Shown here: one piece after another, positions 3,514-58,633 of the stretch
Numbering within the stretch: the first letter of the stretch is position 1
Layout: every line of letters begins with the position of its first letter
Notes under the pieces: model-generated
What the model was told of the DNA's origin: nothing
Databases searched by the model: none
What the model saw: only the letters and a program-made list of their open reading frames with translations
Made by a program: the position numbers and the translations under genes
NCBI GenBank assembly: GCA_000002445.1
Contig: CH464491.1
Coordinates: forward strand, 3,168,001 to 3,232,000
Length of the DNA stretch: 64,000 bases
DNA from: Trypanosoma brucei
Lineage: Eukaryota
Direction of reading: 5' to 3'

Positions 3514-3697
3514 GGTATAAAGCAAAGACGTCTTGGAAGAGATCGTGATTTTCCTGCCTTATTCGTACCATTACTGCACAAAGGGAGAGGAAACGGAACT
3601 CAAGTGACGGCTTTACACGATATCTCAAGTGTTCAAAAAGAAAGAAAGAGAAGAAGGTGAGCGCAGAAGCGAGCGGTCAAATTCACAGGTTAACACA

Positions 3698-7006: not shown

Positions 7007-7042
7007 CCTCCTCCTCCTCCTCATTATTATTATTATTATTAC
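7007..7042. repeat. (CTC)6 immediately followed by (ATT)6 trinucleotide repeats
   Basis: Direct read: ctcctcctcctcctcctc attattattattattatt. Confidence 0.85.
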
Positions 7043-8424: not shown

Positions 8425-8470
8425 TTGTCTTTTGTCTTTTGTCTTTTTTGTTTTCTTTTTGTCTTTTTTG
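8425..8470. repeat. Imperfect (TGTCTTTT)n tandem repeat
   Basis: Direct read: ttgtcttttgtcttttgtcttttttgttttctttttgtcttttttgttttg. Confidence 0.8.
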
Positions 8471-8771
8471 TTTTGTGAGTGTGTGTGTTGTTAAACAAAT
8501 TATAAAATAAAGCAGATGCGGCGAAAAAAAAAATGGGAAGAATGAAAGAAAGGAATATATATATATATATATATATTTATGTTTATTTATGTTTATGCTC
8601 ATACATCTGAGAACGGGTGGAAAAGGGATTACAAATGGTGGCATCGAGTATTTTTCAAAGCAGGAGGCAAATTGCGGGAAGAAGAAGGGATATGAGGGGG
8701 TGGGTTTGCGGAGAAATTTGTGTGTATATATGTGCTAAAAAAGACAAAAACAAGAACAAAAAACTGCAAAT

Positions 8772-8774
<3 letters not shown>

Positions 8775-8818
<44 letters not shown>
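8775..8818. repeat. (TA)n microsatellite, about 22 units, followed by (TTTA)n at 8819-8836
   Basis: Direct read: atatatat... from 8775 to 8818, then atttatttatttat. Confidence 0.9.
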
Positions 8819-8822
<4 letters not shown>

Positions 8823-9255
8823 TTATTTATTTATATCTATGTTTCAATATTTTCGCATATTTATATGTGACCTTGATCTCTCTGAGTTTATTCTGTGTAT
8901 ACAATTAGCATATGTATATTATATGTTAGTTTGCTGGCTTAACTCGCTTCGTTTATATTTGTAACTTTCCTCTTTTGTTTGTTTGTTTGTTGCGGAAGGG
9001 AATTTGACTGGACGTGTCCGTCTTTTTGTTTTTGTTTGCAACTGTTCTTTTTTGTGTGTTTCTTATTTAATTACTTTTTGACTGTGTATTTGTGTGGATA
9101 TTTATACGCAAATATCTATATCTATATATATGTATTTATATACATATGAACTTATATGAGTATAAATATAAATTTGAATGAGAATGAATAGACACGAAAA
9201 GAGCCATTATGTTGAAGTAAGTAAGCCGAACCCAGATGAAATTATATAGGGTGAG

Positions 9256-9308
9256 AAGGGTTGGAAATAATAATAATAATAATAATAATATATATATATA
9301 TATATATA
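9256..9308. repeat. (AAT)8 followed by (TA)n, about 12 units
   Basis: Direct read: aataataataataataataata then tatatatatatatatatatataat. Confidence 0.85.
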
Positions 9309-12300
9309 ATCATGGATGTGAGCTCAGTGTTGTTGTTGTTATAATGATTATTTTCTTTTGCCCTCATGCAAATGCTGACGGACTCGAACACGTGGGGACC
9401 ACCACATCGTCTTACTTTCCCTTCCTCTTTTTTTTTTGTTTTCTCCTTCTTATATGTTTTTTTGTTTTAATTCTAATTGGCTCGTTGCGTTTTGTTTGGT
9501 TGAGCTATTTTCGACACGAACCCGCTATGGTAGTTTTTTTTTGTTACTCTGTTTCTGCCTACTTGGTTACGTTAACTTTTTTCTTTTTTCTTTTTTCTTT
9601 TTTTCCATTTGTTTCTTCGCATGGAGGTGAGTATTCATGAAAAGTGATGGAGAGTAATTTAGAGGAAGCGAAGGGGAAGAAAAGAGCGGAGGGGGAAAAA
9701 AAAAAGGATTGTTTTGGGAGAGAAAGGGGAGAAATAAAAAAAGTTGTTGCTGTTGTTATTGTTATTAAAAAAAAAAACAAAAACAAGAGAGGTTTTAATT
9801 AGAGCGAGGAAAGAGAAAGGTGAAGGAAAGAAGGAAAGGGGGGAGGGAAAAAGTTTGTATTGGCGGTGGGATTTGAGGTGCAACGGATCCGAAATCACGG
9901 AACAATTACATTTAATCTCATTTCTCTGCGGTCATGTTGAGCCGTAAGGAACCCTCGCATACGGGAACCTTCACCATTTTCTTTTTATATTTTTCTCTTT
10001 CTTTTTTTTCTTTTTTCTTTTTTTTTTAAAAAAACATGGAGATGACATTGGATAACAAAACAAATACGCCCATATTTAAATATTTACATATTTATGCAAC
10101 TGTTAATTCATTAAAAGGTGGAGGGGAGGGAATGAACAGAACCAACAATGATGGGGGAAGGGGTTTAACAATGAATAAGTGAAACAGTGGATCAAGTGAA
10201 AATTATTGTATTTATGTTTTATATTAATATAAATACAAATTTAAACGAATTTGAATAAATAACTGAATTTAAGCAATATAATAAATCTATATACGGACAT
10301 GTAGAGTTGCACTTTTTTTTTTTAATTTGAAAGGTTATGAAATTAAAAACAGTTGCGACTGCTTCAGCAAATGAGGAATGTTTCCGTTTCTAAGTGTCAA
10401 TGTCCGTGTGAGTGGCTGAGAGGACGAAAAATATGAATAATATGACAAAAATAGAAGAAGCACAATCGAAGAGACAAACAGAAAAAAAGAAGCATAACGA
10501 AGAATATATAAGCCACGTAAAATATTTAAATGAAATAAAACAAAATGAGGAAGCACTATATTGGACACACAATGAGAAACAGCGGAAGTAATGACAAAAT
10601 TCACTCTTCCCCTCCTTTTATTATTATTATTGTTATTGTTATTATCTTAGTTTCCTCCCTTTTTTTTTTAACATTTGTGACGTGGCGTTTCTTTATTTAC
10701 GTTTTTGGTGGGTTCGTTACCACCGCTCTTCTCGGTGCATGTGTATATGTATATGCTTGCTCACTTTTTTCCCTTGTTTTTTAATATTAATCATATTATT
10801 ATTATTACAATCATATCCCTTGGTTCCATCTACAACCTTTCGTGGGGCAGATATTTATGTCCCCTATATTCCTTTCTCTTTTAAAAAAAAATCTTTATTT
10901 ATTTGATCTGGTTCTTTTTTCCTCTTTATATATATATATATATATTAACGAAACTACTTTTGTTTTTTTAAATTTTTTTACTATTACGGCACAAGCGAGT
11001 GAATCCTCACCCAAAACGGCGGGGAAGGAGCATCAACTTGTGAGGTTCCTCATGAAAAATATAAATATTGCATGCGGATACCAAACTTGCCGATGCTTAC
11101 ACGCATTAAAAAAGAAGGTTTCGTTTTGTATTTTTGAAAAAAAAAACAAAGAAGGAAAAGGAAAGATACATATATATATAAATATGAATGCAAAGAGAAA
11201 ATTAATAGACAAGGAGAGGGGCGTAACTCGAGCTTCCTTCAAGTGTTTTTCCTTTTCATTTTATCAATATTATTTTATTTATCTTTTCTCGGTGTTGTTC
11301 TTCTTTTATCTTTTCTTCTATCCTTTTCACGTGACACTATTTCCTTTGGTTGAAACTAACGAATAATATACGCCTGTGCATAAGCGATGGTGAGTGACTA
11401 AATGAATAAATAAATAAATGCTCTTTTGAATAAATGGAGGGAATATTTAAGACTCAGAAACGTAAGTTACGAGGAGGAAGGAGGAAAAAGGGACGAGAGG
11501 TGTCTTTCCTTCTTTATTTTTGCCTTTTATTGTGTGCACTTTTGCTACTCCTCGTTGCCGCATTTCCGTTCTTCCGTAACGGGGGGGGGGAAAAAAAAAG
11601 GAATTGTGCGTTTGGTAAAGAAATGAAGGTATAGAAGCGGCTTCCGCTTGTCCCCGCATGTCCTCGTGCATGTTTAAAGCCGCGCTCTTCCCTCCATTCG
11701 TGCTGATGAGTATTTGTTCATAAATATGAGAGGAAATATATATATATATATATTTATAGGTATATATTTACTTGACTTCTCTTTTCCTCTTTTTTTAATT
11801 ATTGTAAACTTTTATATTTATGTACATGCACATTAAGAGCGCACCCTAATGTCGTATTGCGGTGATGATTCACCGTTGTTACCCATCATCATGGCCAAAG
11901 TAATAATTATATATATATATATTATTGCATTCTCATTATGGTGCCCTTTTTCTTCCCTTTCCCTTTCTACTTACCTTCTTTGTTATCATAATTATTAAAA
12001 CTGTACGTACTTTACCTCAATTAAGCAATAATGGTAACCGAAAGTAGAAGAAGAAAAGGAAAAAAAAGGATGCGGAAGGATAATTACGCACAACACTTTA
12101 ATTATTATTATTATTATTACATTATTATTACTATTATTATTGTTTGTTCCTTTGTGTACTTCCTTGCCACTTATACGCGTACCTTTCATTGCTTTGGCAC
12201 TGATCATATGAATTAAATTTAAGGATTTTAATTATGGTGATGATTGTTGTTATTAAAAAAAAACAATAATAACTATTATTTTATATTGTGCCTTTACTCG

Positions 12301-13764
12301 TTGCAACCATCATACCCTCGTGGATTGCATTGTTTCGTTGGCGTGGAGGTAACAAACCACATAAACGAGCCAAATGACTGCACATATAGCGGAAGGAAAT
12401 AAAACAAAGGAGAAAGTAAAGCAAATTAAAAAAAAGAGGGAGCGAGAAGGATTTAAAAGAAACATTTTTTTTTCTTAAAGATGAGTCGACTTCTACCATT
12501 CGTGTTTATCGATCCATATTTGTATATGTTTATTTATTTATTTGTATATACGAAAAGAAGATAAGGAATGGGGGAAAAGAGGCATGAAGAAGTGAGAAGA
12601 GGATGAGGAAGAGAAGGAAATAAAAGAAAAGAAAAGAAAAAAAAAGCGATAGAAAACAGAAAGAAAAAGGAAAAAGAAAAAAAAATGAAGAAAAGAGAAC
12701 AAGGTGCTGGTGTGCCGCGTACTTGAAATTCACACTGTTCCCGTTCTTTCACATCGAAGTTGGGAAACCAATAAAACAAGAGGTATAAATCATATCATAA
12801 TTATTACTGTTTGGAGATGACTTTCTTTTCTTTTCTTTTTGTTTTTCTCTTTTTTTTTTTTTTACCCCTCTCCCATTCAGCTTTTCTTTTGTGTACCTTT
12901 TCTTTACAGCACTCTGTGTTTCAACCGACCGGATAATGGAGACCAGCAAAAACAACCACAAAATGCGAGTAAAACCAGAGCAGCAAGAAAAGAAGCGAAA
13001 AAGACAGCGCCCATTTATGGGTTTATTTACTTTAAAATTAAAATATATATATATATATATATTATACTCACATATTTGTGTGGTGACGAAGGTAAGGAAA
13101 GGGGAAATTATTGCAAGTTGTTTATATGAAACTGGCAAACAAAAACTCTTTTTCTATCTTTTTTTTTTAAAAAAAAGAAAAAGAGAAGAGGGGAGAGGAG
13201 AGGAGAGGAGGATTTCAAAAAAAAAAAAGAAGCAAGTGCGTGTGCGCACGGATGGCTGGACGGACTTTAACACATGGTGCAACACGATTTGATTTTCAGT
13301 TTGCTTTTCATTTTCTTCGATCCGACAGATAACTGCTCCGTGGGAATGACTTGCTCTCTTTTTTTTTTTAATTATTATTATAATTATTATGATTTCGTTT
13401 CGTAAATGATTTCCACTTTCCCAGTCCCTGCTGCACTTCATATCCGCGCAACATTTTCTTTGTTTTGTTTTGCTTATTCTTACCCTTCTTGTTATCTTTG
13501 TTTTTTTTAAAATTATTGCTTATTTATATTAGTTTCTATAGGGAATAGTCATATAATTTAGTTGTTTGAGACTGTGAGTCACAAGGCAGCGCCGCTTGAA
13601 CTTTCCAGCATATTGAGATGAGGAACCTGCAGACCCACACATGAAAGGGGTAATATGATTCTTTTTTTAAAAAAAAATATATAAATATATTCTGCTTTTC
13701 ATCCAAGAATAATAATAATGAAAAAGAAAGGTGCAATCCTTTTTGTTTTCAAGGAAAGGTCAGT

Positions 13765-13837
13765 CAATTTTTCCTCTCTTTCTTTTTCGGTTTCTTCGTG
13801 TGCCTGTTTGTTTTTTATATTGTTGTTTTCACACCAG
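13765..13837 (+). promoter_or_regulatory. Polypyrimidine tract plus AG upstream of the EF-hand gene (probable SL acceptor region)
   Basis: ttcctctctttctttttcggtttcttcgtgtgcctgtttgttttttatattgttgttttcacaccag lies about 200 nt upstream of ATG 14045. Confidence 0.4.
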
Positions 13838-14044
13838 TTAACAAGGGCTTTGTGCTCCGCAAAGTTAGCATCATAAAGTAAGGCGATAGAATACAAAAGA
13901 AAAAAAAGCTCCATCAAGAAAAGAGCGGGAGGAAAAAAAAAGAAAAATTATACACCGAAGATATATAGAAAGGGGCCATAAGCCTCGCATATAGCAACAA
14001 ACAAGGAGGACAGACAAAAGGAAAAAAAAAGGGAGGACCAGGAT

Positions 14045-15808
14045 ATGGCGTTTCTCGTACAAGTAGCAGCGGATATATTCAATAATAAAGTGAACTTTGA
14101 GCTTAGCTTCCCGTCCAGACCCAGCATATCGGAACTGACGCGTTCGGCGGAAACTGCTTTCTCAAATGAAATTTCTCTTCGCCGACCGGACAATGTGCCA
14201 TCGCACAAATTTCATTCATCGAAGATCAAAATGTACGATGAGGAGCTCAACAAATGGGTGGATCTAATAAGGGAGGACCAGTTAACGGATTATTGTCAGC
14301 TTTATGTTTTCCAACCTCCAAATGAATGGCACAAGGAAAGCCAAAAGGAAATCCCCCCTGCAATGAAGCCACCGAGTTCCGGCCAACGACACTCCGCAGG
14401 TGGTTCCTTTTCACAGGGCTCACGTGTCACTCCTAATGGAAGCCTTTCCATGCAGGGGGCTCTCGCACCGTACAACGGGTCTCGCTCACCCGTTAGCCAC
14501 CGCAGTGAGTCGCAACAGGCTCGTCACGCTTCGTTCCACGGGAGTACCTCAAATGCGCTCGTGCCGCGTGCCCAGACAGATGTGTCGCAAGAAGAAAAAC
14601 TGCGTGTGCTATTCGCGGAACTCGATGTAAAGGGTAACCGTGTGCTCGACGTTGAGGACTTCCGACACGGTTTCACTGTGTTTAATCTCAACTTCAGCCC
14701 AGCTACGGTGGACGATCTCTTTGAAAAGGGTGACAGCAACCGGGACGGGCGGATTACCTTTTCAGAATTTGAGCGGTTCGGACGGCTCTATCCAATCATG
14801 ACGGATTGCCTCTATTTCCGTTCCAGGGCTTTTTGGGAAGAAGAACAAATCAGGCGCTCTATTCAAAATGAGCGACAGGCAGTGAGACAAGCGGAGCAAG
14901 CGGTGGAGCAGGCCCGACGAGCCCTTGAGGAGGCAGAAAATGAGACAGATGCCGCTAAGGATGCCGTCGCAACTGCGGATGCGGATCTCAAGGATCGAAC
15001 GGACCGTCTGCGGGACCTCACGAGGGACATGGACAACGCAAAGCGCGAGAAGGAGCGGGCCATCCGCGAGAAGAAGGATCGCGAGAAGGAACTCTTCGAG
15101 ATTCGTGAGCGTGAAAAGGAGCTTCGGAAAGACGCACAAGAGGTGGCTCGTGAGGCTGAGAAGCAGGACCGACGGGCGTTTTCTCTCGCTGGGGAAGCGA
15201 GTGCTGCCGATGACAAGGTTCGTGCCTTGGAGAAGGCCCTTGACGAGGCTCGTCGTGCCGCTGAGCGGGCGCACAACGCCGCAGATCAGGCTGCCAGAGA
15301 CGCTGATATCGTGAAACTCCGCATGCAAGATGCTACACGAGATGCCGAGGAGGTGGCACGGGAGGTTCCCCGGGCGGAGGACGCGGTGCGGGCCGCAGAG
15401 CACAACGTATCAGCAGCAGATCAAGGGGCTCGGGAACTGGAAGGAATGGGCCGTGTGCTTTCGCGGGAGATAGAAGAGGCTGGGCAGCGACGGGATCAGA
15501 GCGAAAAGGCAGTTGAGGAGGCGAGAGGTATGATGCATGTGAAAGAGCGTCAGTTGGAGGAAGCAAAACAGCACGTTTCGGAGAGGGAACACGCCGTAAG
15601 GCTTAAGGAAATCGAACTGGCTGATCAGCTGAAGCAGCGTGAACTCGTGTCACAGCACGAGAGGACACTTATAGAGCAGGAGCTTCGGCTACGCGAACAA
15701 AGAGACAGTTTAGAGGAGCGGGAGACGAAATTGATGTCAGAAGCCAGCAGCTTCCTGGGCAATCTCCGTACGCAGTTACACGGTGGGAGGTCCTATCCGC
15801 GAGATTAA
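14045..15808 (+). CDS. EF-hand calcium-binding plus long coiled-coil protein (587 aa) with a compact N-terminal domain
   Basis: Two EF-hand-like loops (DVKGNRVLDVEDF; DSNRDGRITFSEFERF), then about 300 aa of heptad E/R/K/A-rich coiled coil (REKERAIREKKDREKELFEIREREKELRKDAQE...). Intact ORF with coding-like composition. Confidence 0.7.
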   Translation: MAFLVQVAADIFNNKVNFELSFPSRPSISELTRSAETAFSNEISLRRPDNVPSHKFHSSKIKMYDEELNKWVDLIREDQLTDYCQLYVFQPPNEWHKESQKEIPPAMKPPSSGQRHSAGGSFSQGSRVTPNGSLSMQGALAPYNGSRSPVSHRSESQQARHASFHGSTSNALVPRAQTDVSQEEKLRVLFAELDVKGNRVLDVEDFRHGFTVFNLNFSPATVDDLFEKGDSNRDGRITFSEFERFGRLYPIMTDCLYFRSRAFWEEEQIRRSIQNERQAVRQAEQAVEQARRALEEAENETDAAKDAVATADADLKDRTDRLRDLTRDMDNAKREKERAIREKKDREKELFEIREREKELRKDAQEVAREAEKQDRRAFSLAGEASAADDKVRALEKALDEARRAAERAHNAADQAARDADIVKLRMQDATRDAEEVAREVPRAEDAVRAAEHNVSAADQGARELEGMGRVLSREIEEAGQRRDQSEKAVEEARGMMHVKERQLEEAKQHVSEREHAVRLKEIELADQLKQRELVSQHERTLIEQELRLREQRDSLEERETKLMSEASSFLGNLRTQLHGGRSYPRD

Positions 15809-16748: not shown

Positions 16749-17378
16749 TTGCATACGGAGAACACGACACAGGCAATGCGGCGTAGTCCTTGTGCTGATT
16801 ACTTCACATCTCTAATGGCAACCGCCGGTTTTGTTCGATGCCGCGGTTTGAGTTCTAGCGGCCAAACAAACACCACACAAACTGTACACGTTCTCCATAG
16901 CCTATACCGTCGGTTGCGGAAGGAAGGTGAGGAACGAAAGATGCTGGAGGATGCCCTCTCCGTTAACCAACTCGAGACGAACATTCGTATCGGATTACGT
17001 CTTTTGCATTGCCACACACAGCTGGTGGATTTGAACAGACAGCTGAAGGAGTTACCCTTTTGGCGGCTAGTGAGGCGAATGTCACTTGCTGTTGCACGCC
17101 GTTATTATGCCTGGCGAATTTTTTCTATCCGGCTTCGATTGCGTAGCACAACGGCGATTAGCAACGCCCTGGTGTACACGCTCTTCCTAGTGGTTTGCTT
17201 TATGCTCTACGAGATCTATTGCGTTTGCCGCATTGGGGTGACGCGAGCGGAGGATCGGTACAAATCATTAGCCGTCCCGATAGTACAGACGTTTGAAGCC
17301 CTCGAGGAGGCGGCACGGCGACGAAAAGACATCTTGTTGAAGGAAATGGAGGGGGATATAGTTCGGCAAAGGAATTAG
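16749..17378 (+). CDS. Hypothetical small protein (209 aa) with one predicted TM helix. Start is uncertain among ATGs at 16749, 16776 and 16815.
   Basis: Intact ORF on the coding strand in an otherwise gene-dense interval. Hydrophobic segment ALVYTLFLVVCFMLYEIYCVC. Basic/hydroxylated N-terminus (MATAGFVRCRGLSSS) resembles a mitochondrial presequence. No recognisable family. Confidence 0.4.
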   Translation: MHTENTTQAMRRSPCADYFTSLMATAGFVRCRGLSSSGQTNTTQTVHVLHSLYRRLRKEGEERKMLEDALSVNQLETNIRIGLRLLHCHTQLVDLNRQLKELPFWRLVRRMSLAVARRYYAWRIFSIRLRLRSTTAISNALVYTLFLVVCFMLYEIYCVCRIGVTRAEDRYKSLAVPIVQTFEALEEAARRRKDILLKEMEGDIVRQRN

Positions 17379-18244: not shown

Positions 18245-20011
18245 ATGTCCGTGGCCTCTGAGGCAAATGACGTCGTATCGTTCCTCTCCAAGGTTGGGGA
18301 GCGCTACAAGCAGCACCGCGAGTTACTCCGCCGGAAGTTTTTGGAAGACGAGCGTCGCGATTGCCCCTTCAAACCAACATTGTCCAAATATACTTCACAC
18401 AGGAAACCGAGCAAAGGCTCCGAGTGCGTTGAGGCTGTGGAGAAGCGGTTATATCAACTGCATGTGCGCCAGCAGGAGTTGGCGGAAGAGCGTCAAGCTG
18501 CGCATAACAAGAGGGAGAGTGCCGAGTTGAAGGCAGTGATGCGGCCTCCGCGTCTCACCGCACAGGCGCGTTCTCTTTCGCCACGCGATCCAGCAGAAGT
18601 ATCACGGCAATGGTTGCAGAAGCGTGAAGAGAAGTTGATCCGGTTGCGTGAGGCCATCATAAAAGGAGACCTGGACGCGATGCAGTCTAAACCAACTATC
18701 TCTTCATATGCCGAAGCAAACATCACCGCTGAACGTAGAAACGGGAAAAGTATAGAAGATTATCTATTAGCTGAGCATGAGGCGAGACGAGAGCGAATGC
18801 ATCATCATTATGAAGGGGGCACAACGGCTAGTGGTCGTTCTTCTTCCCCTCTACGGCGTGTCGATTCGCAACCCGTGTTCAGACCTCGCATATCCAATTA
18901 TGCGCGACGACTCTCACTCCCTGGTCGCGTTGTGGATCGTTTACTTTCAAAAAAGAGCAGGAAAGGGGATGCGCTGCGTGACGAAAATTGCACTTTTGCA
19001 CCTCGTGTGTCATCGACCTCGACTAGGTTGCTAAGATATTTCTACAAGAATCCCAATGTGTCAGTGTACGATCGCTTATGCGATGAAAGTTACATGAGAC
19101 CTAATGGTTGCTATGCGAAGAAGGGTTCGTCTCATGTGGAACCTGGGAGCTTTGGTGTTCCGCATATAAACGAGACGTCGCGCGCAATAGTTGAACGTAA
19201 AAGAACTGGCGACGATGCGCCACTGCGGACGTATCAGCTTCGAAGCCCTACTGAACGACTTCACGCCTGCAGGGATCCCACGGCTTCGAGTGGCCGGCAC
19301 AGACGGCACTGTCAACATATGATTAGTGAACAGCTTGAAAAGGAGATATCGCAATGTACGTTTCGACCACGTGTTGACGAGGAATCGAACCAGATGTGGC
19401 GGCGGCGGTTACAACAGTTGAAGGGGGGTGGACACCCAAGAAATGTTTCAGGACTCCGTGAGCTCCTTTGGCGTCGTTCAGAAACACGTATGAAAGAGGA
19501 GTTGCGCAGGCAACGTGAGCTGCAAGAACAGAAAGAGGTGGAGGAGTGTACCTTTCACCCCAAAGTAGGGCGGGCCCCTCGAAGGCGAGTTGAGTGCGCA
19601 CTTTCCGTTCCGGAACGCAATGAGGCATGGCAGCAGCGACGGCAGAAAAAACTCAACTGTACCCGGGAAGAGGTTGAGCGTTCTGAGACATCCGAATGCT
19701 CGTTTCATCCCTCCGTTTCTTCGCTGCATTCTGCAGCTTCGGTGCCAGCCTCTAACGTAGCCGGGTACGATTCACATCTGCGGCGTCACGCGGAGTCGCG
19801 GAGGATAATTCGGGAGATGCAGGAGTGGTGGCGGCCGAAGTCTCACATATCTCGTAACAGCGGGTCAGCTCGTCGGGTGCGTTCGCAACCCCAAAAACGG
19901 GAAAAGGAATGGTGGGACTTGCCGCAGAAATGCGAGCTCAGCAGTTTTACGCGCACGTGCTCTCCCACTTCGTGGGATGATCAACTTAGTTCGTCACAGT
20001 TGGGTTCGTGA
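18245..20011 (+). CDS. Hypothetical basic protein (588 aa) with five dispersed C-[PTS]-F-x-P-x-[VL] repeats
   Basis: Repeats read directly: DCPFKPTL, NCTFAPRV, QCTFRPRV, ECTFHPKV, ECSFHPSV. Each is preceded by an E/R-rich segment. R/S/E-rich overall. Intact ORF, + strand. Confidence 0.6.
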   Translation: MSVASEANDVVSFLSKVGERYKQHRELLRRKFLEDERRDCPFKPTLSKYTSHRKPSKGSECVEAVEKRLYQLHVRQQELAEERQAAHNKRESAELKAVMRPPRLTAQARSLSPRDPAEVSRQWLQKREEKLIRLREAIIKGDLDAMQSKPTISSYAEANITAERRNGKSIEDYLLAEHEARRERMHHHYEGGTTASGRSSSPLRRVDSQPVFRPRISNYARRLSLPGRVVDRLLSKKSRKGDALRDENCTFAPRVSSTSTRLLRYFYKNPNVSVYDRLCDESYMRPNGCYAKKGSSHVEPGSFGVPHINETSRAIVERKRTGDDAPLRTYQLRSPTERLHACRDPTASSGRHRRHCQHMISEQLEKEISQCTFRPRVDEESNQMWRRRLQQLKGGGHPRNVSGLRELLWRRSETRMKEELRRQRELQEQKEVEECTFHPKVGRAPRRRVECALSVPERNEAWQQRRQKKLNCTREEVERSETSECSFHPSVSSLHSAASVPASNVAGYDSHLRRHAESRRIIREMQEWWRPKSHISRNSGSARRVRSQPQKREKEWWDLPQKCELSSFTRTCSPTSWDDQLSSSQLGS

Positions 20012-25759: not shown

Positions 25760-25862
25760 TCTTCTTTCTGTTAACCCACCGTCGTGATTGTTTCTATCCC
25801 TTTTTCCTTTTTTCTTCTTCTTTTCTCCCAGGTTTCCTTTCCTTTCCTTTTTCTCACTCGTA
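25760..25862 (+). promoter_or_regulatory. Long polypyrimidine tract plus AG upstream of the CHFR-like gene. The ORF-track N-terminal extension 25784-25939 is its translation artefact.
   Basis: ccctttttccttttttcttcttcttttctcccaggtttcctttcctttcctttttctcactcgtag. In-frame translation gives a poly-F/L/S peptide with no domain. Confidence 0.45.
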
Positions 25863-25939
25863 GCTCTGGTGGCGAAGCAACGGAGAGGGAGAGGTACTAT
25901 TTGTGTGTGTGTTTTAGAGGAGAGGAGAAAAGAGGGAAG

Positions 25940-27613
25940 ATGTCAGGTTGCGACGGGACGGAGGGCCGCTTTGGTCGAATTTCCTCGTGGGAGCCGAGCA
26001 CGCCACCCGATGTTGTCACCGACTCCGTTGAGGACGCCTTCGAAGAGGTCGCACCTTCGGTGAATGGACCACTCATCGCACGCCTTATTCCGATACGCGA
26101 CGGCTCCACTGCTTCACTGCGGGTACCAATGCCAATACTTGAGATATACAGAGATTCAGGCACTATCACAATGGGCCGCTCAAGGGAACTGCCTGTTGAG
26201 TGCCGCGTAGATGTGGCACGTGTATCAACTCAGCACTGTGAGTTGCGTGTTAATGCTGTCACTCGGCAGGTGACTGTGCGAGACATATCGTTAAATGGAA
26301 CATTCGTAAATGGGAAGCGGTTAGAGAAAGGTGTTGACGTGGAGCTGCAGTCTGGCGACCAAATTTCCTTCGTGAAATCCCTTCCCACTGGTACCACTGC
26401 AACGTCAACTCCGGCACAGACCTCGTCATCTGAGTCTGCAAATGTGAGCAGTGGTGGTGGAAACGGTGCAGAATACGTGTTTCAGAGGGTGTCCAGCACA
26501 CAAAGTGTTTCGCAAATGGTAGAGGAGCTTACGTGCTCCGTGTGCAAACATCTCTACCATCGGCCCTGCAGTGCATTGCCTTGCATGCATGTGTTTTGTG
26601 CTTCGTGTTTGAGCAAGTGGTTAGCGTGCGGTAACGTCACGTGTATGGAGTGCCGTGCGGAGCTGTCAGAGGTTCGCCCAACGCATAAGCTACAGAACTG
26701 TGTAGAGCAACTCTTGAAACTCAACCCGGGGCTCTGTCGTAGCGCCGAGGAACTGGCGGAGTGTGGGTTCAACGACGATATTCCCCCCGAGGGAAGAAAG
26801 TTACTGAAGCGGACACGCAGGGTTCGGGATGATGACGGTGATGACTACTCCGATACGGGGAGTGATCTCGATGATGATGATGATGATTTCGGTAGTGAAT
26901 TCAATACAAGCAGTGGGGGTGATGGCGTTAATGCAACTCATGTTCCTCAACTGTACCAAGGCCAAACGCATGGTCATGCGCCAGCAACTGGGTCTTGCAA
27001 GCACTGTGAAGCTCCTTCTGCGGTGGACGGTTTCCGTTGCCCTGCGAGGGGGATGCACCAGTCTTGTGCACGGTGTCGTCGGCTATTCCCCATGCGTCCA
27101 CTCTGCACTCGGCCGCAACGGTGCCATCTCTGCAGCACCCCGTATTGTAATTTGTACTACAAGGATGAGGGTGGTTGTCCAGTTGGCGCTGACGGGGGCC
27201 TTACCATCGTTTCGCAGTACCGTGCGCCGCAAGCCCTTCCACCAAACCTGTTTGGTGGCAACAAGGTGGAACAAAACATTGTTTCAAGTTATTTGATGGT
27301 CAAACACGTGGTGGTTGAGGATGTTTGGGGAGAATGCCTCCAGAAGTTGAGTGGTCGTGAATGGGTGCCTGATATTACTTGTGTAAATGGGCCTGTGACA
27401 GCAGATTCTGCTCTGTGTGAAGGCTGCATGGACATCCTCTTTGCCGCATTGTTGTTTCATTACCGTCGCTGCATACCTCGTGCTGAGTTACCATATTCTG
27501 TGACGGACAGACCGAACTGTTGGTACGGCCTGAACTGCCGCACACAGTTTCACAACATGCAGCACGCAAACAAATATAACCACGCGTGCTACCAAGAAAA
27601 GCGGAAAGAGTAG
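25940..27613 (+). CDS. CHFR-like E3 ubiquitin ligase: FHA domain, RING finger, Cys-rich region, and a C-terminal PBZ (PAR-binding) zinc finger
   Basis: FHA signature: TMGRS...C..VDV..VSTQHCEL......VTVRDISLNGTFVNGKRL. RING: CSVCKHLYHRPCSALPCMHVFCASCLSKWLACGNVTCMEC. PBZ-like: RPNCWYGLNCRTQFHNMQHANKYNH, which fits CxYGxxCx(5-6)Hx(4-5)YxH. D-rich acidic linker (DDDGDDYSD...DDDDDD). Confidence 0.75.
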   Translation: MSGCDGTEGRFGRISSWEPSTPPDVVTDSVEDAFEEVAPSVNGPLIARLIPIRDGSTASLRVPMPILEIYRDSGTITMGRSRELPVECRVDVARVSTQHCELRVNAVTRQVTVRDISLNGTFVNGKRLEKGVDVELQSGDQISFVKSLPTGTTATSTPAQTSSSESANVSSGGGNGAEYVFQRVSSTQSVSQMVEELTCSVCKHLYHRPCSALPCMHVFCASCLSKWLACGNVTCMECRAELSEVRPTHKLQNCVEQLLKLNPGLCRSAEELAECGFNDDIPPEGRKLLKRTRRVRDDDGDDYSDTGSDLDDDDDDFGSEFNTSSGGDGVNATHVPQLYQGQTHGHAPATGSCKHCEAPSAVDGFRCPARGMHQSCARCRRLFPMRPLCTRPQRCHLCSTPYCNLYYKDEGGCPVGADGGLTIVSQYRAPQALPPNLFGGNKVEQNIVSSYLMVKHVVVEDVWGECLQKLSGREWVPDITCVNGPVTADSALCEGCMDILFAALLFHYRRCIPRAELPYSVTDRPNCWYGLNCRTQFHNMQHANKYNHACYQEKRKE

Positions 27614-32148: not shown

Positions 32149-34530
32149 ATGCCCTTCAGCAAAGCATGGCGGAGTGCCGTTTATCCTGATTTTAGGGAGC
32201 AGGGCGCGTATATTAACTACAAGGCAACGAAAGATACTTTGCATCGCATGAAGGAAGATATCGCGAACCCTGCAACGCCAGATGAATTGTACAATTCGCT
32301 GCTCATGCAAAAGGCAACTGTGTATAAGTGGTGTGAAAACAAGGTGAAGGAATTGCAAATGATGGCAGAAGCCCTCATGAAGGCATCGGATTACCTCTCA
32401 GAAGAAGAGACACCTACTAATATGAGTATGGTATTCAGTATGGTGGGGAGTAGTGAAGCGAAGTATCTTCCACCCAGTGATGCGAGGCGCGTGGCAGATG
32501 CAATCACGTATGAACTACTGCGTTTTGTTGAATGCCGTAATCTGAACACAGACACAATTGAGCACATTATTGCGCGTATGTATCGCTACGCCGTGCTCGG
32601 ACCCACCGGCGATCGGTGGAAGAATATTAACAAGGAATATGACTATCATGCGCTCTCCATTGACGAGATATTTTTTATGCTCTCAAAGGTGTACGAGCAC
32701 GTAAATGAGGTAGAGAGCATGCGGCGTGACGGTCGGTCAAGCATACCTTGTGGTACCGTTGGTTCTCAGGTGTTTGATCGTCGCTCTGTGAAGTACTGGG
32801 TTCACATGCAGGACCTACCATTTGTCATTGCCCGGATTATTCCGCATCTTCCTCTCAGTACCTTTCAAGACACCTACGCTATGAGTAAGGAGCGTGGTGT
32901 CCCGTTTACTTTGGGCTCCCCAATTAGCAGCGTGTATTATGACAATGACAAGTTCCTTCTTTATCATCGCCGTCTTGAACGACTTGACGGCGCTACACTC
33001 ATACGCATGCGATGGTACGGCCGTCCTCTCGATAGTGATTGGAACAAGTTGGAGTCAAAGGACAGCGTTTTCATGGAGATAAAAGTGCACCACGAGGCAT
33101 GGAGTGGGGAGCGCAGCAACAAACGACGTTTTGCCTTAAAGGAGAAGGACGTGGATGCATATATTCGCGGTGATTTAAGCTTAAAGCCAGCACTAGAGAA
33201 GCTGCGCTCGAAGAACGCATCCGAGGCAGAACAAGAGAAGTTTATGTCGCTTGCTACGGAGATCCTCACGAAGATACACGCTTATGACCTCAAACCAGTG
33301 CTGCGGACGCAGTGCCAGCGTGCAGCCTTTCAGTGTGGACTCGACCAGTCTATTCGCATTAGTATTGACACGGATCTGAGGGTCGTCGCAGAGGATTTCG
33401 GTCTGAGTCACCATTGGCGTTACAATGGTGCGGATGCCCCTCTTTCACACTTCCCCTATGCTGTTGTGGAAGTGAAGCTTCAATGTGCAGAAAACGAGCG
33501 TATCGCCCCGTGGATTGAAGAACTGATGAACTGTCGCTACATGGAGAGTGTGCCCAAGTTTAGCAAGTACGCACACGGCATTGCTACGCTTTATGGTCAC
33601 ACGCCATTTATCAAGATGGTTCCCTACTGGATGCCCCAGCTTGATATTGACATTCGCGCTTCCACAAAACCTGAATACAACCAGTGGGATCCTACCATTG
33701 GAATCGCATCTGGTTGCTGGGAGCGCACTACAGATCGGGTTATATTTGGAACAGGTCACGCCCAAACCCAGACAGTTGGTGCTTCGGAGGCACGGTTCCT
33801 TCCGCGTACCGATTGTTTGCGCACATATCAAAGGGTGCTGAAAGCCATCAAGCGTGGTGCGCATATGAACAGCGTCGCACCAACGATGTCACCCACTGAT
33901 AGGCCGCCTTCAGACGAAAAGAAACTGACAGAGCAGCAAGAGCTTGCACCTGTTGTGCAATATGATACAGACAGGCGGCACAAGGCCTATACGGCATTCC
34001 ACCTGTATCCTTACTGTGAAGACGGTGTAGAGTCGCTATGCTTTACGTCGACAGGTGGAAAACACGTTGCGGCGGAAGTGTTTTCTGGGCTTATTCCGTG
34101 GCAGACAGGTAAGCGCATCCGTGTTCCCCAAAAATATGATCCAAAAACCTTATTAACATCTGAGCGCTTCATGGTAAAGTGGGCCGAACAGGCGACGCGC
34201 GTAGGAGTTGTTGGTCTTGCTGTCATCCGTTTCGGAAATAGTATGAGTCTGCCGAATGACATGGTTGCGGTGCACTCATTCTGGCGTGCAAACTTTCACA
34301 TCGTGTTGGGTTCTTTGATGGTTGTGGTCGCGGAGTGCGTTTTGGTGTACGCGTACGTTACATTTAAGAGTCGATCACGTCGAGTCTACGCGCGAAGGAA
34401 GATCCGTTACGACGATCGGCGTGGCCCTGTAGCGTTAACATTTGTGATATTAGCCGTTATTCTTATAACTGTTATGATGCACGTTATGGTCCGGTACGGG
34501 CCTATGCTCACCGGAAGCGACACCTTCTGA
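32149..34530 (+). CDS. VTC4: Vacuolar transporter chaperone 4 (Vtc4)-type polyphosphate polymerase: N-terminal SPX domain, central VTC catalytic tunnel domain, and C-terminal three-TM DUF202-like region
   Basis: SPX-like N-terminus (MPFSKAWRSAVYPDFREQGAYINYKATKDTLHRMKE). VTC core with conserved basic tunnel residues (RIxxxxYDNDxxxLYxxRL...LIRMRWYG...FMEIKVH...KRRFALKEKDV...YIRGDL). C-terminal hydrophobic helices (HIVLGSLMVVVAECVLVYAYV; VALTFVILAVILITVMMHVMV). Established family: acidocalcisome/vacuolar polyP synthase. Confidence 0.85.
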   Translation: MPFSKAWRSAVYPDFREQGAYINYKATKDTLHRMKEDIANPATPDELYNSLLMQKATVYKWCENKVKELQMMAEALMKASDYLSEEETPTNMSMVFSMVGSSEAKYLPPSDARRVADAITYELLRFVECRNLNTDTIEHIIARMYRYAVLGPTGDRWKNINKEYDYHALSIDEIFFMLSKVYEHVNEVESMRRDGRSSIPCGTVGSQVFDRRSVKYWVHMQDLPFVIARIIPHLPLSTFQDTYAMSKERGVPFTLGSPISSVYYDNDKFLLYHRRLERLDGATLIRMRWYGRPLDSDWNKLESKDSVFMEIKVHHEAWSGERSNKRRFALKEKDVDAYIRGDLSLKPALEKLRSKNASEAEQEKFMSLATEILTKIHAYDLKPVLRTQCQRAAFQCGLDQSIRISIDTDLRVVAEDFGLSHHWRYNGADAPLSHFPYAVVEVKLQCAENERIAPWIEELMNCRYMESVPKFSKYAHGIATLYGHTPFIKMVPYWMPQLDIDIRASTKPEYNQWDPTIGIASGCWERTTDRVIFGTGHAQTQTVGASEARFLPRTDCLRTYQRVLKAIKRGAHMNSVAPTMSPTDRPPSDEKKLTEQQELAPVVQYDTDRRHKAYTAFHLYPYCEDGVESLCFTSTGGKHVAAEVFSGLIPWQTGKRIRVPQKYDPKTLLTSERFMVKWAEQATRVGVVGLAVIRFGNSMSLPNDMVAVHSFWRANFHIVLGSLMVVVAECVLVYAYVTFKSRSRRVYARRKIRYDDRRGPVALTFVILAVILITVMMHVMVRYGPMLTGSDTF

Positions 34531-37325: not shown

Positions 37326-39722
37326 TTGCTCTACTGGCGTTGGGTGGTAATGTTGTCATCTTCGTCGCCGGTTTTGGTTTCTGAGCAGACATGCGATAAG
37401 GTCGACTATGGCATGGAACTAATGCCTGGTAAGAGATTAAATACTCCTGTGGAAACACCAGTGATTATTTGTCCACTGTACAACCTTGGAAACACATGCT
37501 ATTTTAATGCCGGTGTTCAGTTGCTTGTAAACTGCCCTCAATTTGTGTACTGCCTCCGTGACTCGCTGTTTCGCCACCCGGAGCATCACCGCTACGCTGA
37601 ACGCGTAAGCCGTTCGTGCGGTAAGGCAGCACTGGAGTTATTTGAGGCCTTTACTCAATTGGTCAATGATATGGAGTTCACTCAACTTGAACCTGACTGC
37701 GCAATCTCGCCACTGAGGGCGTTGGAATGCCTTTCCGCTGTTCATCCGTTGTTTGAGGGCCGCGAACAGCAGGACTGTCCTGAAATGGTGAACGCGGTGA
37801 TTGCTAACGTGGCGGAGGTGGGGCGGCAAGAAATCGAATTGGACAACTTGCTGAAGTCCTTTGAAGGGGATTATCTGTGCTTGGAAAAGGCAATGGGGTG
37901 TCGGCGAGGTGACACATCGTTTGTGCCCATGCGGTGCACGAGGCAACGGATGGAGTTCGATGAGATAAGTTTGCAGTCTGGTTCTTTATATGGAAGTGAC
38001 CAAATGAATCGAAATGGGGCAGCATCTGCCAACCATGAACAGAATGAAAATGGTTCTGAGAACAACCATTTTACAACCTCTGCTCAAACGCACAACGCAC
38101 CCCAGTTTCCAGTGTTTCCGGGAAGTTGGTGGAACTTCAATACAATGAGAATCAACCAATTTGTAAACCGTGAGAATAGGTTGCTTCAGCTTCAGGAAGA
38201 CTCCAAGAATGGAAAGCTTCCCCAAAGCACGTTTCGACCACCCAAAATATTTTACAACAGTGTGACTGATGGTTTTACCGGTCAAATACTCTCCGAAATA
38301 CGGTGCCACACTTGCCAAAGAAGCTCTCGTATTGTGGAGAGTTTTTCTTCGCTGACAATTGGAATCCCATCCCCCCGGCAGAGGCTCCAATATGCTAAAA
38401 AGCATCCGGAGGTTCAGCGCGTCAAACAGGATGGGACACCTCAGAACCTCGCACGGTCGCTTTATTGGCGTAGTGTTTTCTCGTGGTTCTATGCTGCGAC
38501 ACGGTGGATTGTTGGTCTGTTTACGGGCTTTTCGAGACGAGGAAATTGCCCTGTGACGTTGCAGGAGTGCCTCGACATCCATTTTGAGCCGGTGGAACTG
38601 AAGGGTAGCAACATGTATCATTGCAGCACATGCAATGCCAAACGGGAGGCAACTAAGCAGGAGACTCTCCTCACAATGCCCGAGTACCTACTGTTACATA
38701 TGAAACGCTTCGAACAGGGGAAGTGTTTCAATACCAAGAAAACAGATGAAGTCATCTTCCCCATGTCGTGGGATGTAGGCGCTGCTCAAAGTACAGACGT
38801 GCTGCGGTTGCGTAACTATTTGGACTCGAATGTTTTAGCGTTTAATTACCCACTCTCAACATTCCACGGAACGACTAGTGCAGGTGATAGCACACCTATG
38901 GAAAACTCAACGTCTGTCACAACCCCCCTAACAGCTACTAACGACCACCAGAAGTTTGCCGCAGCCAGTTCGTCTCCTTTGCAAAGTATGCAAACAAGGG
39001 AAAACCCGGATATTGAGGCCCCAATCGATACCTACACCTTAGAAGCCGTCGTTAACCATCACGGAACTATTGCTCGTGGCCACTACACAACCTTCGCGCG
39101 TAAGAAGACTGCGTCGAAAGACGTGTGGGTTTACCTGAACGATGAAGAGTTGAGCACCACTACTGCTGACTCCGTGGCGAATTCGGAGGAGTACCTACTT
39201 CTATATAAGAAGCAATCTCTCTTCCCTCGCTCCGAGGCGTTCGAGAAACTTCGCACGAAGGCACGAGAGCTGTTGGCGAAACCACTGTCATCGCGTATGG
39301 GCTTGGATGCCGCTGGCGTAGACAAGAGTAGCAGGAATCCGAATAGCAACACCAACCTTTCCATATCTGGGGGCGGAGACGGTTGTCATGATGTGGTTTA
39401 CATTTCCCGACCGTGGCTGCAGCGTATGACTTTTATGGAGGAGCCGGGTCCTATCCTCAACCGCCTTTCCTATCGCGCCGCCACGCAAGAAACAGGGGAG
39501 TCCTCGTCGGCACATGGTACGCAAAGTTCACCAAAACAAAATCTGGGGGAGCCAACTTCTGCAAAGGGGCCACCTTACGAGAAAAGCCTCCCCGTCGAGT
39601 GGTTCTATGTATCCCTTCTGCAACAGGAATATGACGCATTTTACGACATGTATGGTGGAAACCAGGCGGTGACTCAGAGTGAATACAATTTAATGATGAG
39701 TGAACAAGACGCACTCGTATGA
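37326..39722 (+). CDS. Ubiquitin carboxyl-terminal hydrolase (USP, peptidase C19 family). An alternative start is at 37350.
   Basis: Cys box GNTCYFNAGVQLL. His box HHGTIARGHYTTFARKK...VWVYLNDEEL. Zinc-ribbon cysteines CHTCQ...CSTCN within the catalytic core. Long C-terminal extension. Confidence 0.8.
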   Translation: MLYWRWVVMLSSSSPVLVSEQTCDKVDYGMELMPGKRLNTPVETPVIICPLYNLGNTCYFNAGVQLLVNCPQFVYCLRDSLFRHPEHHRYAERVSRSCGKAALELFEAFTQLVNDMEFTQLEPDCAISPLRALECLSAVHPLFEGREQQDCPEMVNAVIANVAEVGRQEIELDNLLKSFEGDYLCLEKAMGCRRGDTSFVPMRCTRQRMEFDEISLQSGSLYGSDQMNRNGAASANHEQNENGSENNHFTTSAQTHNAPQFPVFPGSWWNFNTMRINQFVNRENRLLQLQEDSKNGKLPQSTFRPPKIFYNSVTDGFTGQILSEIRCHTCQRSSRIVESFSSLTIGIPSPRQRLQYAKKHPEVQRVKQDGTPQNLARSLYWRSVFSWFYAATRWIVGLFTGFSRRGNCPVTLQECLDIHFEPVELKGSNMYHCSTCNAKREATKQETLLTMPEYLLLHMKRFEQGKCFNTKKTDEVIFPMSWDVGAAQSTDVLRLRNYLDSNVLAFNYPLSTFHGTTSAGDSTPMENSTSVTTPLTATNDHQKFAAASSSPLQSMQTRENPDIEAPIDTYTLEAVVNHHGTIARGHYTTFARKKTASKDVWVYLNDEELSTTTADSVANSEEYLLLYKKQSLFPRSEAFEKLRTKARELLAKPLSSRMGLDAAGVDKSSRNPNSNTNLSISGGGDGCHDVVYISRPWLQRMTFMEEPGPILNRLSYRAATQETGESSSAHGTQSSPKQNLGEPTSAKGPPYEKSLPVEWFYVSLLQQEYDAFYDMYGGNQAVTQSEYNLMMSEQDALV

Positions 39723-58595: not shown

Positions 58596-58630
58596 ACCTC
58601 TTTGCTCTTTTCCCCCTCCCCCTTTTGTCT
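58596..58630 (+). promoter_or_regulatory. Polypyrimidine tract immediately upstream of ATG 58634. The ORF-track extension from 58529 translates it.
   Basis: cacctctttgctcttttccccctcccccttttgtct. Confidence 0.4.
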
Positions 58631-58633
58631 AAA

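Follow-up and report, generated by a model that had tools for sequence, protein, structure and literature searches.

The open reading frame and its surroundings

The window analyzed here is a stretch of 64,000 nucleotides from chromosome 11 of Trypanosoma brucei. Positions 25940-27613 of its forward strand hold one intact open reading frame, which translates from the ATG into 557 amino acids followed by a stop codon. The frame and the elements discussed below are the following, with poly(ADP-ribose) abbreviated as PAR, CHFR standing for "checkpoint with FHA and RING finger domains", and amino acid positions counted from this ATG.

25791..25863, + strand: polypyrimidine tract with AG dinucleotides (25830-31 and 25862-63), upstream of the ATG, read from the sequence
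25940..27613, + strand: complete coding sequence of the CHFR ortholog, with an unbroken translation
26165..26371, + strand, aa 76-144: FHA domain, a phosphothreonine-peptide reader (PF00498, E=2.8e-14, 53.7 bits)
26534..26653, + strand, aa 199-238: C3HC4 RING finger, the predicted E2-recruiting catalytic module (PF00097, E=3.9e-7, 30.3 bits)
26810..26974, + strand, aa 291-345: basic patch, then an acidic, D-rich, disordered linker (from sequence and pLDDT <50)
26996..27475, + strand, aa 353-512: zf-CRD, the CHFR-type multi-zinc Cys-rich domain (PF17979, E=5.2e-39, 134.5 bits)
27509..27586, + strand, aa 524-549: PBZ, a CCHH zinc finger of the PAR-binding type (PF10283, E=2.3e-5, 24.7 bits)
27587..27610, + strand, aa 550-557: conserved C-terminal tail CYQEKRKE (ortholog alignment)

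A mechanical delimitation of the frame starts it at an upstream GTG (25784). The ATG at 25940 is the first one 3' of the long polypyrimidine tract, and the N-termini of the orthologs align to it. Judging from the general structure of trypanosome genes, the tract is probably a trans-splice acceptor region. The gene lies between BILBO1 (Tb927.11.12150) and TbVtc4 (Tb927.11.12220), within a unidirectional cluster whose coding strand it shares. We considered the gene neighborhood as functional evidence and dropped it, because the neighbors are unrelated housekeeping genes of one polycistron and yield no functional clue. A scan of the whole window against Rfam gave no match.

The 557-residue sequence matches, with 100% identity and 100% coverage, a T. 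equiperdum / T. brucei-group protein (P0001) listed in UniRef as "E3 ubiquitin-protein ligase CHFR", and the identical sequence is present in NCBI/UniRef with the four Pfam domains precomputed. The assignment to CHFR is therefore not a new recognition; it is a correct ortholog call already made by automated annotation and, as a sequence finding, poses no challenge to current understanding. A literature search for CHFR together with Trypanosoma or Leishmania found no experimental paper on any trypanosomatid CHFR. One may still ask whether the frame is non-functional, having arisen by chance, by decay into a pseudogene, or as an annotation artefact. We found no support for this, the sole weak point being the possible start at the upstream GTG. 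The frame is intact and sits on the coding strand of its cluster, the fold is predicted at high confidence, and orthologs are present in at least 29 kinetoplastids, where domain residues are kept and linkers vary, the pattern expected with purifying selection. Along with the identity to a database entry, these observations effectively refute a non-functional frame, whose probability we regard as negligible.

Domain architecture and its conservation

We compared the protein with Pfam using hmmscan and the curated cut-offs (FHA 20.7, zf-C3HC4 21, zf-CRD 26.3, and PBZ 22.7 bits). All four domains score above them, in agreement with a preliminary description of the locus that had proposed the combination of FHA, RING, Cys-rich region, and C-terminal PBZ. 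Conservation was assessed in 29 kinetoplastid orthologs, which are 39-59% identical overall, and in a MAFFT alignment of 11 taxa from Discoba, Metamonada, and Holozoa. The latter is collinear over its full length, with 49 invariant positions spread across the four domains. The order is FHA, RING, acidic linker, CHFR-type multi-zinc Cys-rich domain (CRD), and PBZ, and all metal ligands and signature residues are conserved. The 557-residue protein is thus almost certainly a member of the CHFR family.

The FHA domain is preceded by a kinetoplastid-specific motif, D-x-F-[DE]-L-A-A-P, found in the 29-ortholog alignment. Its canonical ligand-binding residues (G79, R80, S96, H99, N119, and G120) are invariant in the 29 kinetoplastids and in the 11 taxa, and it is modeled with pLDDT >90, with the FHA domains of Rad53, RNF8, and MDC1 as Foldseek matches. 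The eight RING ligands (C199, C202, C215, H217, C220, C223, C235, and C238) are invariant in both sets. W227 is also invariant and R239, which follows the last Cys, is nearly so; the RING too has pLDDT >90. These ligands, W227, and R239 are sequence features of an active RING; E3 activity is predicted. The CRD gives the strongest domain match in the protein and covers the whole profile (positions 1-158 of 158); 12 of its Cys/His residues are invariant in the 29 kinetoplastids and across the 11 taxa, and its pLDDT is >90. Together with the PBZ it forms the best-conserved part of the protein, and this conservation extends to the last residue across orthologs. In the tail, C550, Q552, K554, R555, K556, and E557 are invariant in 29/29 kinetoplastid orthologs, and C550 in 11/11 of the taxa compared.

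The same C-terminal part provides the closest link to structures in the PDB. The last 215 residues align to crystal-structure chains of human CHFR, which are the best PDB sequence matches in phmmer (2xp0 and 2xoc, E=3e-22 and 7e-22, respectively). A Foldseek search with the AlphaFold (AF2) model gave 2xoy and 2xoc as best PDB matches (E=4e-12, TM 0.63-0.65, target-normalised), and these top structural matches are the human CHFR CRD-PBZ with bound mono-ADP-ribose and Ap2A.

An N-terminal FHA followed by a RING is also the arrangement of yeast Dma1/Dma2 and human RNF8, where it serves phospho-dependent targeting of a ubiquitin ligase. One could propose that the trypanosome protein functions like this class, relying chiefly on its FHA domain for phosphorylation-dependent targeting during cytokinesis, spindle positioning, or DNA-break signaling, with any link to PAR being secondary. 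The invariant phosphothreonine-binding residues, the intact RING, and the RNF8 FHA domain among the Foldseek matches would fit such a function. However, Dma1/Dma2 and RNF8 have, to our knowledge, neither a CHFR-type Cys-rich domain nor a PBZ, whereas in the trypanosome protein the CRD is the domain matched most strongly (E=5e-39) and both modules are kept to the last residue. Hence, we class it as a genuine CHFR rather than as a protein of the Dma/RNF8 type, which consists of FHA and RING only. A mainly Dma/RNF8-like function differs from CHFR in emphasis and not in identity, and is compatible with CHFR membership, but we consider it quite improbable.

The linker had been described as an additional lineage-specific feature, and here the wider comparison points the other way. 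Its D-rich stretch, RTRRVRDDDGDDYSDTGSDLDDDDDDFGSE, spans aa 291-320, the pLDDT is <50 over aa 299-345, and both sequence and length vary between orthologs. Yet the median of the maximal D/E content in a 30-residue segment is 0.47 among CHFR-family representatives, the same value as in T. brucei; a content of at least 0.5 is reached by 61 of 123 representatives. An acidic stretch of low complexity is thus common in the family, and in several members with a name (Capsaspora, Diplonema, Paratrimastix, and dog CHFR among them) it directly follows the RING, as in T. brucei. The acidic linker is family-wide, not lineage-specific.

The distribution of the architecture as a whole leads to a similar revision. 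Word-indexed homolog searches, with the single protein or with the 29-sequence alignment, had kinetoplastids and a few bacterial FHA proteins among the matches listed. An exhaustive HMMER scan of representative clusters with the kinetoplastid profile gave about 300 clusters at E<1e-30, with named CHFRs as the top matches. Named members with the same architecture and a C-terminal PBZ come from euglenids, diplonemids, Heterolobosea, Preaxostyla, Anaeramoeba, oxymonads, and ciliates, and further ones from chytrid fungi, choanoflagellates, Filasterea, a sponge, amphioxus, and a mammal. The combination is therefore not a hallmark of metazoan CHFR, as had been suggested, since it spans euglenids, diplonemids, Heterolobosea, metamonads, ciliates, chytrids, choanoflagellates, and animals. 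Given this breadth, its "retention" in trypanosomes is the expected ancestral state, and the full FHA-RING-CRD-PBZ protein was probably present in the last eukaryotic common ancestor.

The PBZ finger and its probable reading of poly(ADP-ribose)

The peptide on which the PBZ call was originally based, RPNCWYGLNCRTQFHNMQHANKYNH, corresponds to aa 524-548 and follows the pattern R524-x2-C527-W-Y529-G530-x2-C533-R-T-Q-x5-H542-x3-Y546-x-H548. The profile search recovers the domain 2 bits above its cut-off (24.7 vs 22.7 bits), and 24 of the 29 kinetoplastid orthologs match the profile at E<=0.01, while five miss. The four ligands C527, C533, H542, and H548 are invariant in all 29, as are R524, W528, G530, R534, and Q536, which upholds the claim that the PBZ is intact. 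In orthologs that are only 39-59% identical, such conservation is far beyond chance. C527, G530, C533, Q536, H542, and H548 are invariant in the 11 taxa as well.

The published consensus is [K/R]xxCx[F/Y]GxxCxbbxxxxHxxx[F/Y]xH (Ahel 2008, as quoted in PMC4030884 and PMC5322727). The trypanosome finger agrees with it at R524, C527, Y529, G530, C533, H542, Y546, and H548 and deviates at two points. The basic pair "bb" is replaced by R-T-Q, the same as in human CHFR, and the spacing from Cys to His is 8 instead of 7 residues. We rejected the longer loop as a trypanosome-specific insertion, since C-x8-H occurs in 130 of the 137 CHFR-family representatives; it is the family norm, and the 7-residue loop of vertebrates is the exception. 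The ADP-ribose complexes solved for human CHFR contain a PBZ with which the finger aligns both by sequence and by Foldseek. Among the ordered parts of the AF2 model, which lacks zinc, the finger has the lowest confidence (pLDDT 65-72).

It is likely that the PBZ binds PAR. The ligand exists in the organism, because T. brucei has a PARG and a single PARP that is activated by DNA and modifies itself (PMC5473844, PMC4806436). Alternatively, the protein could be a CHFR homolog whose C-terminal CCHH finger no longer reads PAR and serves as a structural zinc site of the CRD, or binds another adenine nucleotide or nucleic acid, with targeting achieved by FHA and CRD protein contacts only. The borderline profile score and the five orthologs missed by the profile are consistent with this view, as are the lower model confidence in the finger and a Cys-His loop with one residue more than that of the human complex of known structure. 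In addition, the aromatic residue that the consensus places before the last His is a Leu in 56 of the 137 family representatives, so that perhaps not every member of the CHFR family reads PAR. However, T. brucei retains this aromatic residue (Y546) along with the other consensus positions R524, Y529, G530, R534, and Q536, and the invariance of non-ligand surface residues across kinetoplastids this divergent is hard to square with a purely structural role. Moreover, published surveys indicate that the distribution of PBZ tracks that of PARP (PMC4245714), and T. brucei has both PARP and PARG. Loss of PAR reading hence seems unlikely, and we retain a PAR-binding PBZ as the preferred reading.

Proposed function and comparison with known systems

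The best explanation of these observations is that the gene encodes the CHFR ortholog of the T. brucei group, probably a PAR-recruited RING E3 ligase acting downstream of the single TbPARP. We infer PAR-dependent recruitment and a checkpoint role from homology, and the steps of the mechanism are modeled on the characterized human CHFR and on the known trypanosome PAR system. Upon DNA damage or oxidative stress, the DNA-activated TbPARP would make PAR, and the C-terminal CRD+PBZ module would bind adjacent ADP-ribose units and bring the ligase to PARylated proteins. There, the RING would recruit a charged E2 and the PARylated proteins would be ubiquitinated, the likeliest target being automodified TbPARP itself, by analogy with human CHFR and PARP1. 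The FHA domain would add a phosphothreonine-dependent contact with a partner or a substrate.

A role in the response to DNA damage or in cell-cycle delay can be advanced only tentatively. Cell-cycle control in trypanosomes is very different from that in humans, so the known substrates of human CHFR need not apply. Kinetochores are unconventional in these organisms, and we know of no canonical spindle-assembly checkpoint in them. In a more speculative scenario, which we think has a small chance of being correct, a PAR-dependent "antephase-like" delay would be built around CHFR: PAR made by TbPARP would recruit CHFR, which would ubiquitinate TbPARP or mitotic kinases, e.g., TbPLK or TbAUK1, so that, following genotoxic or microtubule stress, cells would pause ahead of mitosis or cytokinesis. 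Such a delay would represent an ancestral eukaryotic checkpoint module older than the spindle checkpoint machinery. In this scenario, the N-terminal DxF[DE]LAAP motif of kinetoplastids and the KRKE tail, which is invariant, could connect CHFR to lineage-specific partners. The PAR-recruited ligase proposed above would, if it operates as outlined, be the first identified PAR reader in trypanosomatids and link the single TbPARP/TbPARG system to ubiquitin signaling. A 2023 review of ADP-ribosylation in trypanosomatid parasites mentions no reader, which makes T. brucei CHFR a reasonable and testable entry point.

Among known systems, RNF146/Iduna, a WWE-RING E3, couples a PAR reader to a RING ligase and thereby carries out PAR-dependent ubiquitination (PMC5322727). 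The logic is the same as that proposed here, but its reader is the unrelated WWE domain, which binds iso-ADP-ribose, and it has neither FHA nor CRD and is non-homologous outside the RING. APLF and other PBZ proteins of the DNA-damage response, e.g., the PBZ proteins of Dictyostelium, share the CCHH PBZ consensus, a finger that recognizes adjacent ADP-ribose units of PAR (PMC4030884). The PBZ fingers of APLF are tandem and stand-alone, and their second Cys is followed by a K/R-K/R pair, whereas in the trypanosome protein the only PBZ is joined to the CRD and shows the CHFR-type variant R-T-Q.

Human and vertebrate CHFR (PDB 2xoc, 2xoy, 2xoz, and 2xp0 for the CRD-PBZ) differ from the trypanosome protein in the following respects. 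The latter is shorter than dog CHFR isoform X6 (P0116; 557 vs 654 aa) and has no counterpart of the long insert that separates FHA from RING. Relative to vertebrate CHFR, the Cys-to-His loop of its PBZ has 8 residues instead of 7, its tail reads CYQEKRKE instead of CEQTRF(KN), and the D-x-F-[DE]-L-A-A-P motif before the FHA domain is specific to kinetoplastids. In both, FHA, C3HC4 RING, acidic/Ser-rich linker, multi-zinc Cys-rich domain, and C-terminal PBZ follow each other in the same order, and the zinc ligands and the FHA and RING signature residues all align. Identity over the CRD-PBZ is about 29-30% in the structural alignment, and the PBZ core, C-x-[YW]-G-x-N-C-R-T-Q...H-A-x-K-[FY]-N-H, differs little between them.

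The CHFR gene and its surroundings

The CHFR orthologue lies in a run of genes for which we list the elements that define it:

14045-15808: BILBO1 (Pfam BILBO1_N and EF-hands), T. brucei Tb927.11.12150
25791-25863, + strand: polypyrimidine tract with AG dinucleotides, upstream of ATG 25940
25940-27613, + strand: CHFR orthologue CDS, one unbroken frame of 557 codons plus stop
32149-34530: VTC-domain protein (Pfam), T. brucei Tb927.11.12220
16749-17378, 18245-20011, 49030-50754, 51350-52996, 53319-54029 and 58529-61213, + strand: six ORFs (209-894 aa) with no Pfam match at the thresholds used

The mechanical ORF begins at GTG 25784, upstream of ATG 25940. Read from the window sequence, this ATG is the first one downstream of the 70-base polypyrimidine tract, and it matches the N-termini of the orthologues in an alignment of 29 kinetoplastids. 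Such a tract with AG dinucleotides is the usual layout of a trypanosome trans-splice acceptor, and we infer that it plays this part for the CHFR gene. That the frame is non-functional is next to impossible. A database protein of Trypanosoma equiperdum (T. brucei group) is 100% identical to the query over its full length; it is called "FHA domain containing protein, putative" at NCBI and "E3 ubiquitin-protein ligase CHFR" in UniRef, and the four Pfam domains are already annotated on this public sequence, auto-named CHFR. The identical sequence is public as CHFR, and our literature search turned up no experimental work on CHFR in any trypanosomatid; the finding therefore amounts to a correct existing annotation, and the orthologue is uncharacterised.

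All domain-bearing ORFs of at least 200 aa in the window are on the + strand, and the CHFR region is a kinetoplastid polycistronic unit. Given the identities of the flanking BILBO1 and VTC-domain genes, the CHFR gene is on chromosome 11, between Tb927.11.12150 and Tb927.11.12220; its identifier is probably Tb927.11.12190 or Tb927.11.12200. The same polycistron includes a UCH-family deubiquitinase (798-aa ORF, 37326-39722) and a small Rbx1/APC11-like protein of the RING-H2 type (62401-63288); sharing a trypanosome polycistron is no evidence of a functional link for either. The six ORFs lacking Pfam matches are presumably kinetoplastid-specific proteins. An AT-rich, gene-poor stretch of about 9.6 kb (4400-14000; GC 0.31-0.37 vs about 0.50 elsewhere), flanked by an RRM-protein gene (3629-4351) and BILBO1, holds no ORF of at least 200 aa, just short T-rich and microsatellite repeats. 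An Rfam scan of the whole window gave no match. The stretch may represent a 3' UTR or an intergenic region of unusual length.

Domain architecture and the PBZ finger

The preliminary description proposed an FHA, RING, Cys-rich and C-terminal PBZ protein, and Pfam recovered all four domains above their curated cut-offs:

aa 76-144: FHA (E=2.8e-14, 53.7 bits, cut-off 20.7)
aa 199-238: C3HC4 RING (E=3.9e-7, 30.3 bits, cut-off 21)
aa 353-512: zf-CRD PF17979 (E=5.2e-39, 134.5 bits, cut-off 26.3), the whole profile being covered
aa 524-549: PBZ PF10283 (E=2.3e-5, 24.7 bits, cut-off 22.7)

The PBZ peptide and the D-rich stretch were also found where that description placed them. The nearest solved structures by sequence are those of the human CHFR C-terminal domain, 2xp0 (E=3e-22) and 2xoc (E=7e-22), over aa 343-555. 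An AlphaFold2 model built from the 29-sequence alignment has a mean pLDDT of 77.9, with FHA, RING and CRD above 90, PBZ at 65-72, and disorder at aa 1-39, in the 151-172 loop and in the 299-345 linker. Its top Foldseek PDB matches were human CHFR CRD-PBZ with mono-ADP-ribose (2xoc) or Ap2A (2xoy) (E=4e-12 to 7e-12, TM 0.63-0.65 on target, 29-30% identity), followed by FHA domains of Rad53, RNF8, MDC1 and others. The proposed CHFR identity is thus borne out by the four domains and by the best solved-structure relative, and membership in the family is nearly certain.

The alignment (n=29; 39-59% identity to the query) comprises Trypanosoma, Leishmania, Leptomonas, Phytomonas, Angomonas, Novymonas, and environmental and assembly-derived sequences. 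Invariant across it are the FHA ligand-binding residues (G79, R80, S96, H99, N119, G120, T121), 8/8 RING ligands, RING W227 and twelve CRD Cys/His; R239, after the last RING Cys, is nearly invariant. The PBZ is kept in orthologues, as had been supposed: its ligands (C527, C533, H542, H548) and non-ligand signature residues (R524, W528, G530, R534, Q536) are invariant, and 24/29 match the profile at E<=0.01. Precomputed annotation shows the PBZ in fewer orthologues because the 26-position profile scores near its threshold.

Compared with the consensus [K/R]xxCx[F/Y]GxxCxbbxxxxHxxx[F/Y]xH (PMC4030884; PMC5322727), the trypanosome finger agrees at R524, C527, Y529, G530, C533, H542, Y546 and H548. 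It deviates by R-T-Q in place of the basic pair and by a spacing of 8 residues instead of 7 from the second Cys to the first His. This 8-residue spacing occurs in 130 of the 137 sequences with a recognisable finger among the best 147 family representatives of an exhaustive scan; the exception is the vertebrate 7-residue loop, not the trypanosome one. A structural finger that does not bind PAR would fit three observations: the profile score is borderline, the loop is one residue longer, and other lineages have Leu where the consensus has an aromatic residue. Against it, the non-ligand surface residues are invariant and Y546 is retained, making this reading unlikely. PAR binding by the query is predicted, and we consider it probable.

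Leu replaces the aromatic residue two positions before the last PBZ His (...RLNH) in 56/137 family representatives (among P0034-P0180), for instance in Diplonema, chytrids, Didymoeca and Blepharisma. Animals have Y or F there, and so do kinetoplastids apart from a single exception, P0017. In the lineages that carry the substitution, PAR binding may have changed or been lost.

Outside the domains, the C-terminal tail CYQEKRKE (aa 550-557, window 27587-27610) is kinetoplastid-wide, its KRKE end being present in 29/29 orthologues. KRKE or KGKE is also terminal in several deeper relatives, and holozoan CHFRs terminate in ...CEQTRF. One possibility is that the tail acts as a nuclear localisation signal; another is that it makes an additional contact with phosphate beside the PBZ. 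Directly ahead of the first FHA strand, the motif D-x-F-[DE]-[LE]-[AV]-A-P (aa 32-39, window 26033-26056; short helix predicted at aa 31-37) has an invariant F34 and a nearly invariant D32 in the 29 kinetoplastids. It was not found in the non-kinetoplastid CHFRs of an 11-taxon alignment and may be a lineage-specific docking motif.

Distribution of the architecture and of the acidic linker

Word-indexed searches returned kinetoplastids only among the matches listed. When HMMER was run exhaustively over 1.84 billion representatives with the kinetoplastid profile, 300 clusters scored at E<1e-30 and 1554 at E<1e-10. Names were looked up for 30 of the best matches, and 18 were named. Named CHFR-family matches come from a euglenid (Ploeotia vitrea), a diplonemid (Diplonema japonicum), Heterolobosea (Pharyngomonas kirbyi), Preaxostyla (Paratrimastix pyriformis), an oxymonad (Blattamonas nauphoetae), Anaeramoebae (two paralogues of Anaeramoeba flamelloides), ciliates (Blepharisma stoltei, Tetrahymena malaccensis), chytrid fungi (Polychytrium aggregatum, P0057; Chytriomyces sp., P0111), choanoflagellates (Didymoeca costata, Salpingoeca rosetta), Filasterea (Capsaspora owczarzaki), a sponge (Oopsacas minuta), a cephalochordate (Branchiostoma) and a mammal (Canis). 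The other two named matches are an EukProt transcript ORF (P0055) and a JGI sequence labelled 'E3 ubiquitin-protein ligase CHFR' (P0083). A collinear alignment of 11 taxa, including T. brucei and L. donovani, has 49 invariant positions over FHA, RING, CRD and PBZ. From this collinearity and the spread of named members, the full FHA-RING-CRD-PBZ protein is pan-eukaryotic and most simply read as ancestral to eukaryotes. The architecture is therefore not the metazoan hallmark it had been taken for, and the presence of CHFR in trypanosomes is expected.

The chytrid homologues P0057 and P0111 carry a C-terminal PBZ-like finger, CWYG..CRT..HN..HA.[KR]LNH. According to a 2014 survey, no PBZ motif could be found in Fungi (PMC4245714).

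Nor is the acidic linker lineage-specific, as first thought. The maximum D/E fraction per 30 aa is 0.47 in T. brucei, with a median of 0.47 and values of at least 0.5 in 61/123 family representatives. A comparable acidic stretch directly follows the RING in Capsaspora, Diplonema, Paratrimastix and dog CHFR, as it does in T. brucei. It is a CHFR family trait.

A predicted PAR-dependent role and comparison with known ligases

Human CHFR binds PAR via its PBZ and needs this binding for checkpoint function; it also binds autoPARylated PARP-1 and ubiquitinates PARP-1 (PMC4030884; PMC5322727). In T. brucei the one PARP is activated by DNA and modifies itself, and a PARG is present too (PMC5473844; PMC4806436). 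A survey of PAR systems that treats a PBZ as indicating PAR metabolism covers T. brucei, with an ambiguous table entry for this species (PMC4245714). Neither the PBZ nor any PAR reader appears in a 2023 review of ADP-ribosylation in Trypanosomatidae or in the TbPARP structure paper. The query has an intact FHA, an intact RING with E2-binding surface features (W227 and R239), and a CRD-PBZ homologous to the module crystallised with ADP-ribose. PAR made by TbPARP would draw the trypanosome CHFR to chromatin that is damaged or to TbPARP that has modified itself; the ligase would ubiquitinate PARylated targets, and the FHA domain would supply an additional phospho-dependent contact. Such a PAR-ubiquitin-checkpoint link in trypanosomes is a plausible prediction; a role in damage response or cell-cycle delay is put forward more tentatively. 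A mainly FHA-driven, Dma1/RNF8-like role would draw on the same intact FHA, in a protein that also retains the CRD-PBZ module, and seems even less likely than a purely structural finger. The trypanosome CHFR is of modest value as an experimental entry point.

A Dma1/Dma2/RNF8-type identity was rejected because the query carries CRD and PBZ. The nearest known protein is vertebrate CHFR, and the differences are minor. The trypanosome protein lacks the long FHA-RING insert, its PBZ loop has 8 residues rather than 7, and it adds the CYQEKRKE tail and the DxF[DE]LAAP-type motif ahead of the FHA; at the basic-pair position of the PBZ, human CHFR likewise has R-T-Q.
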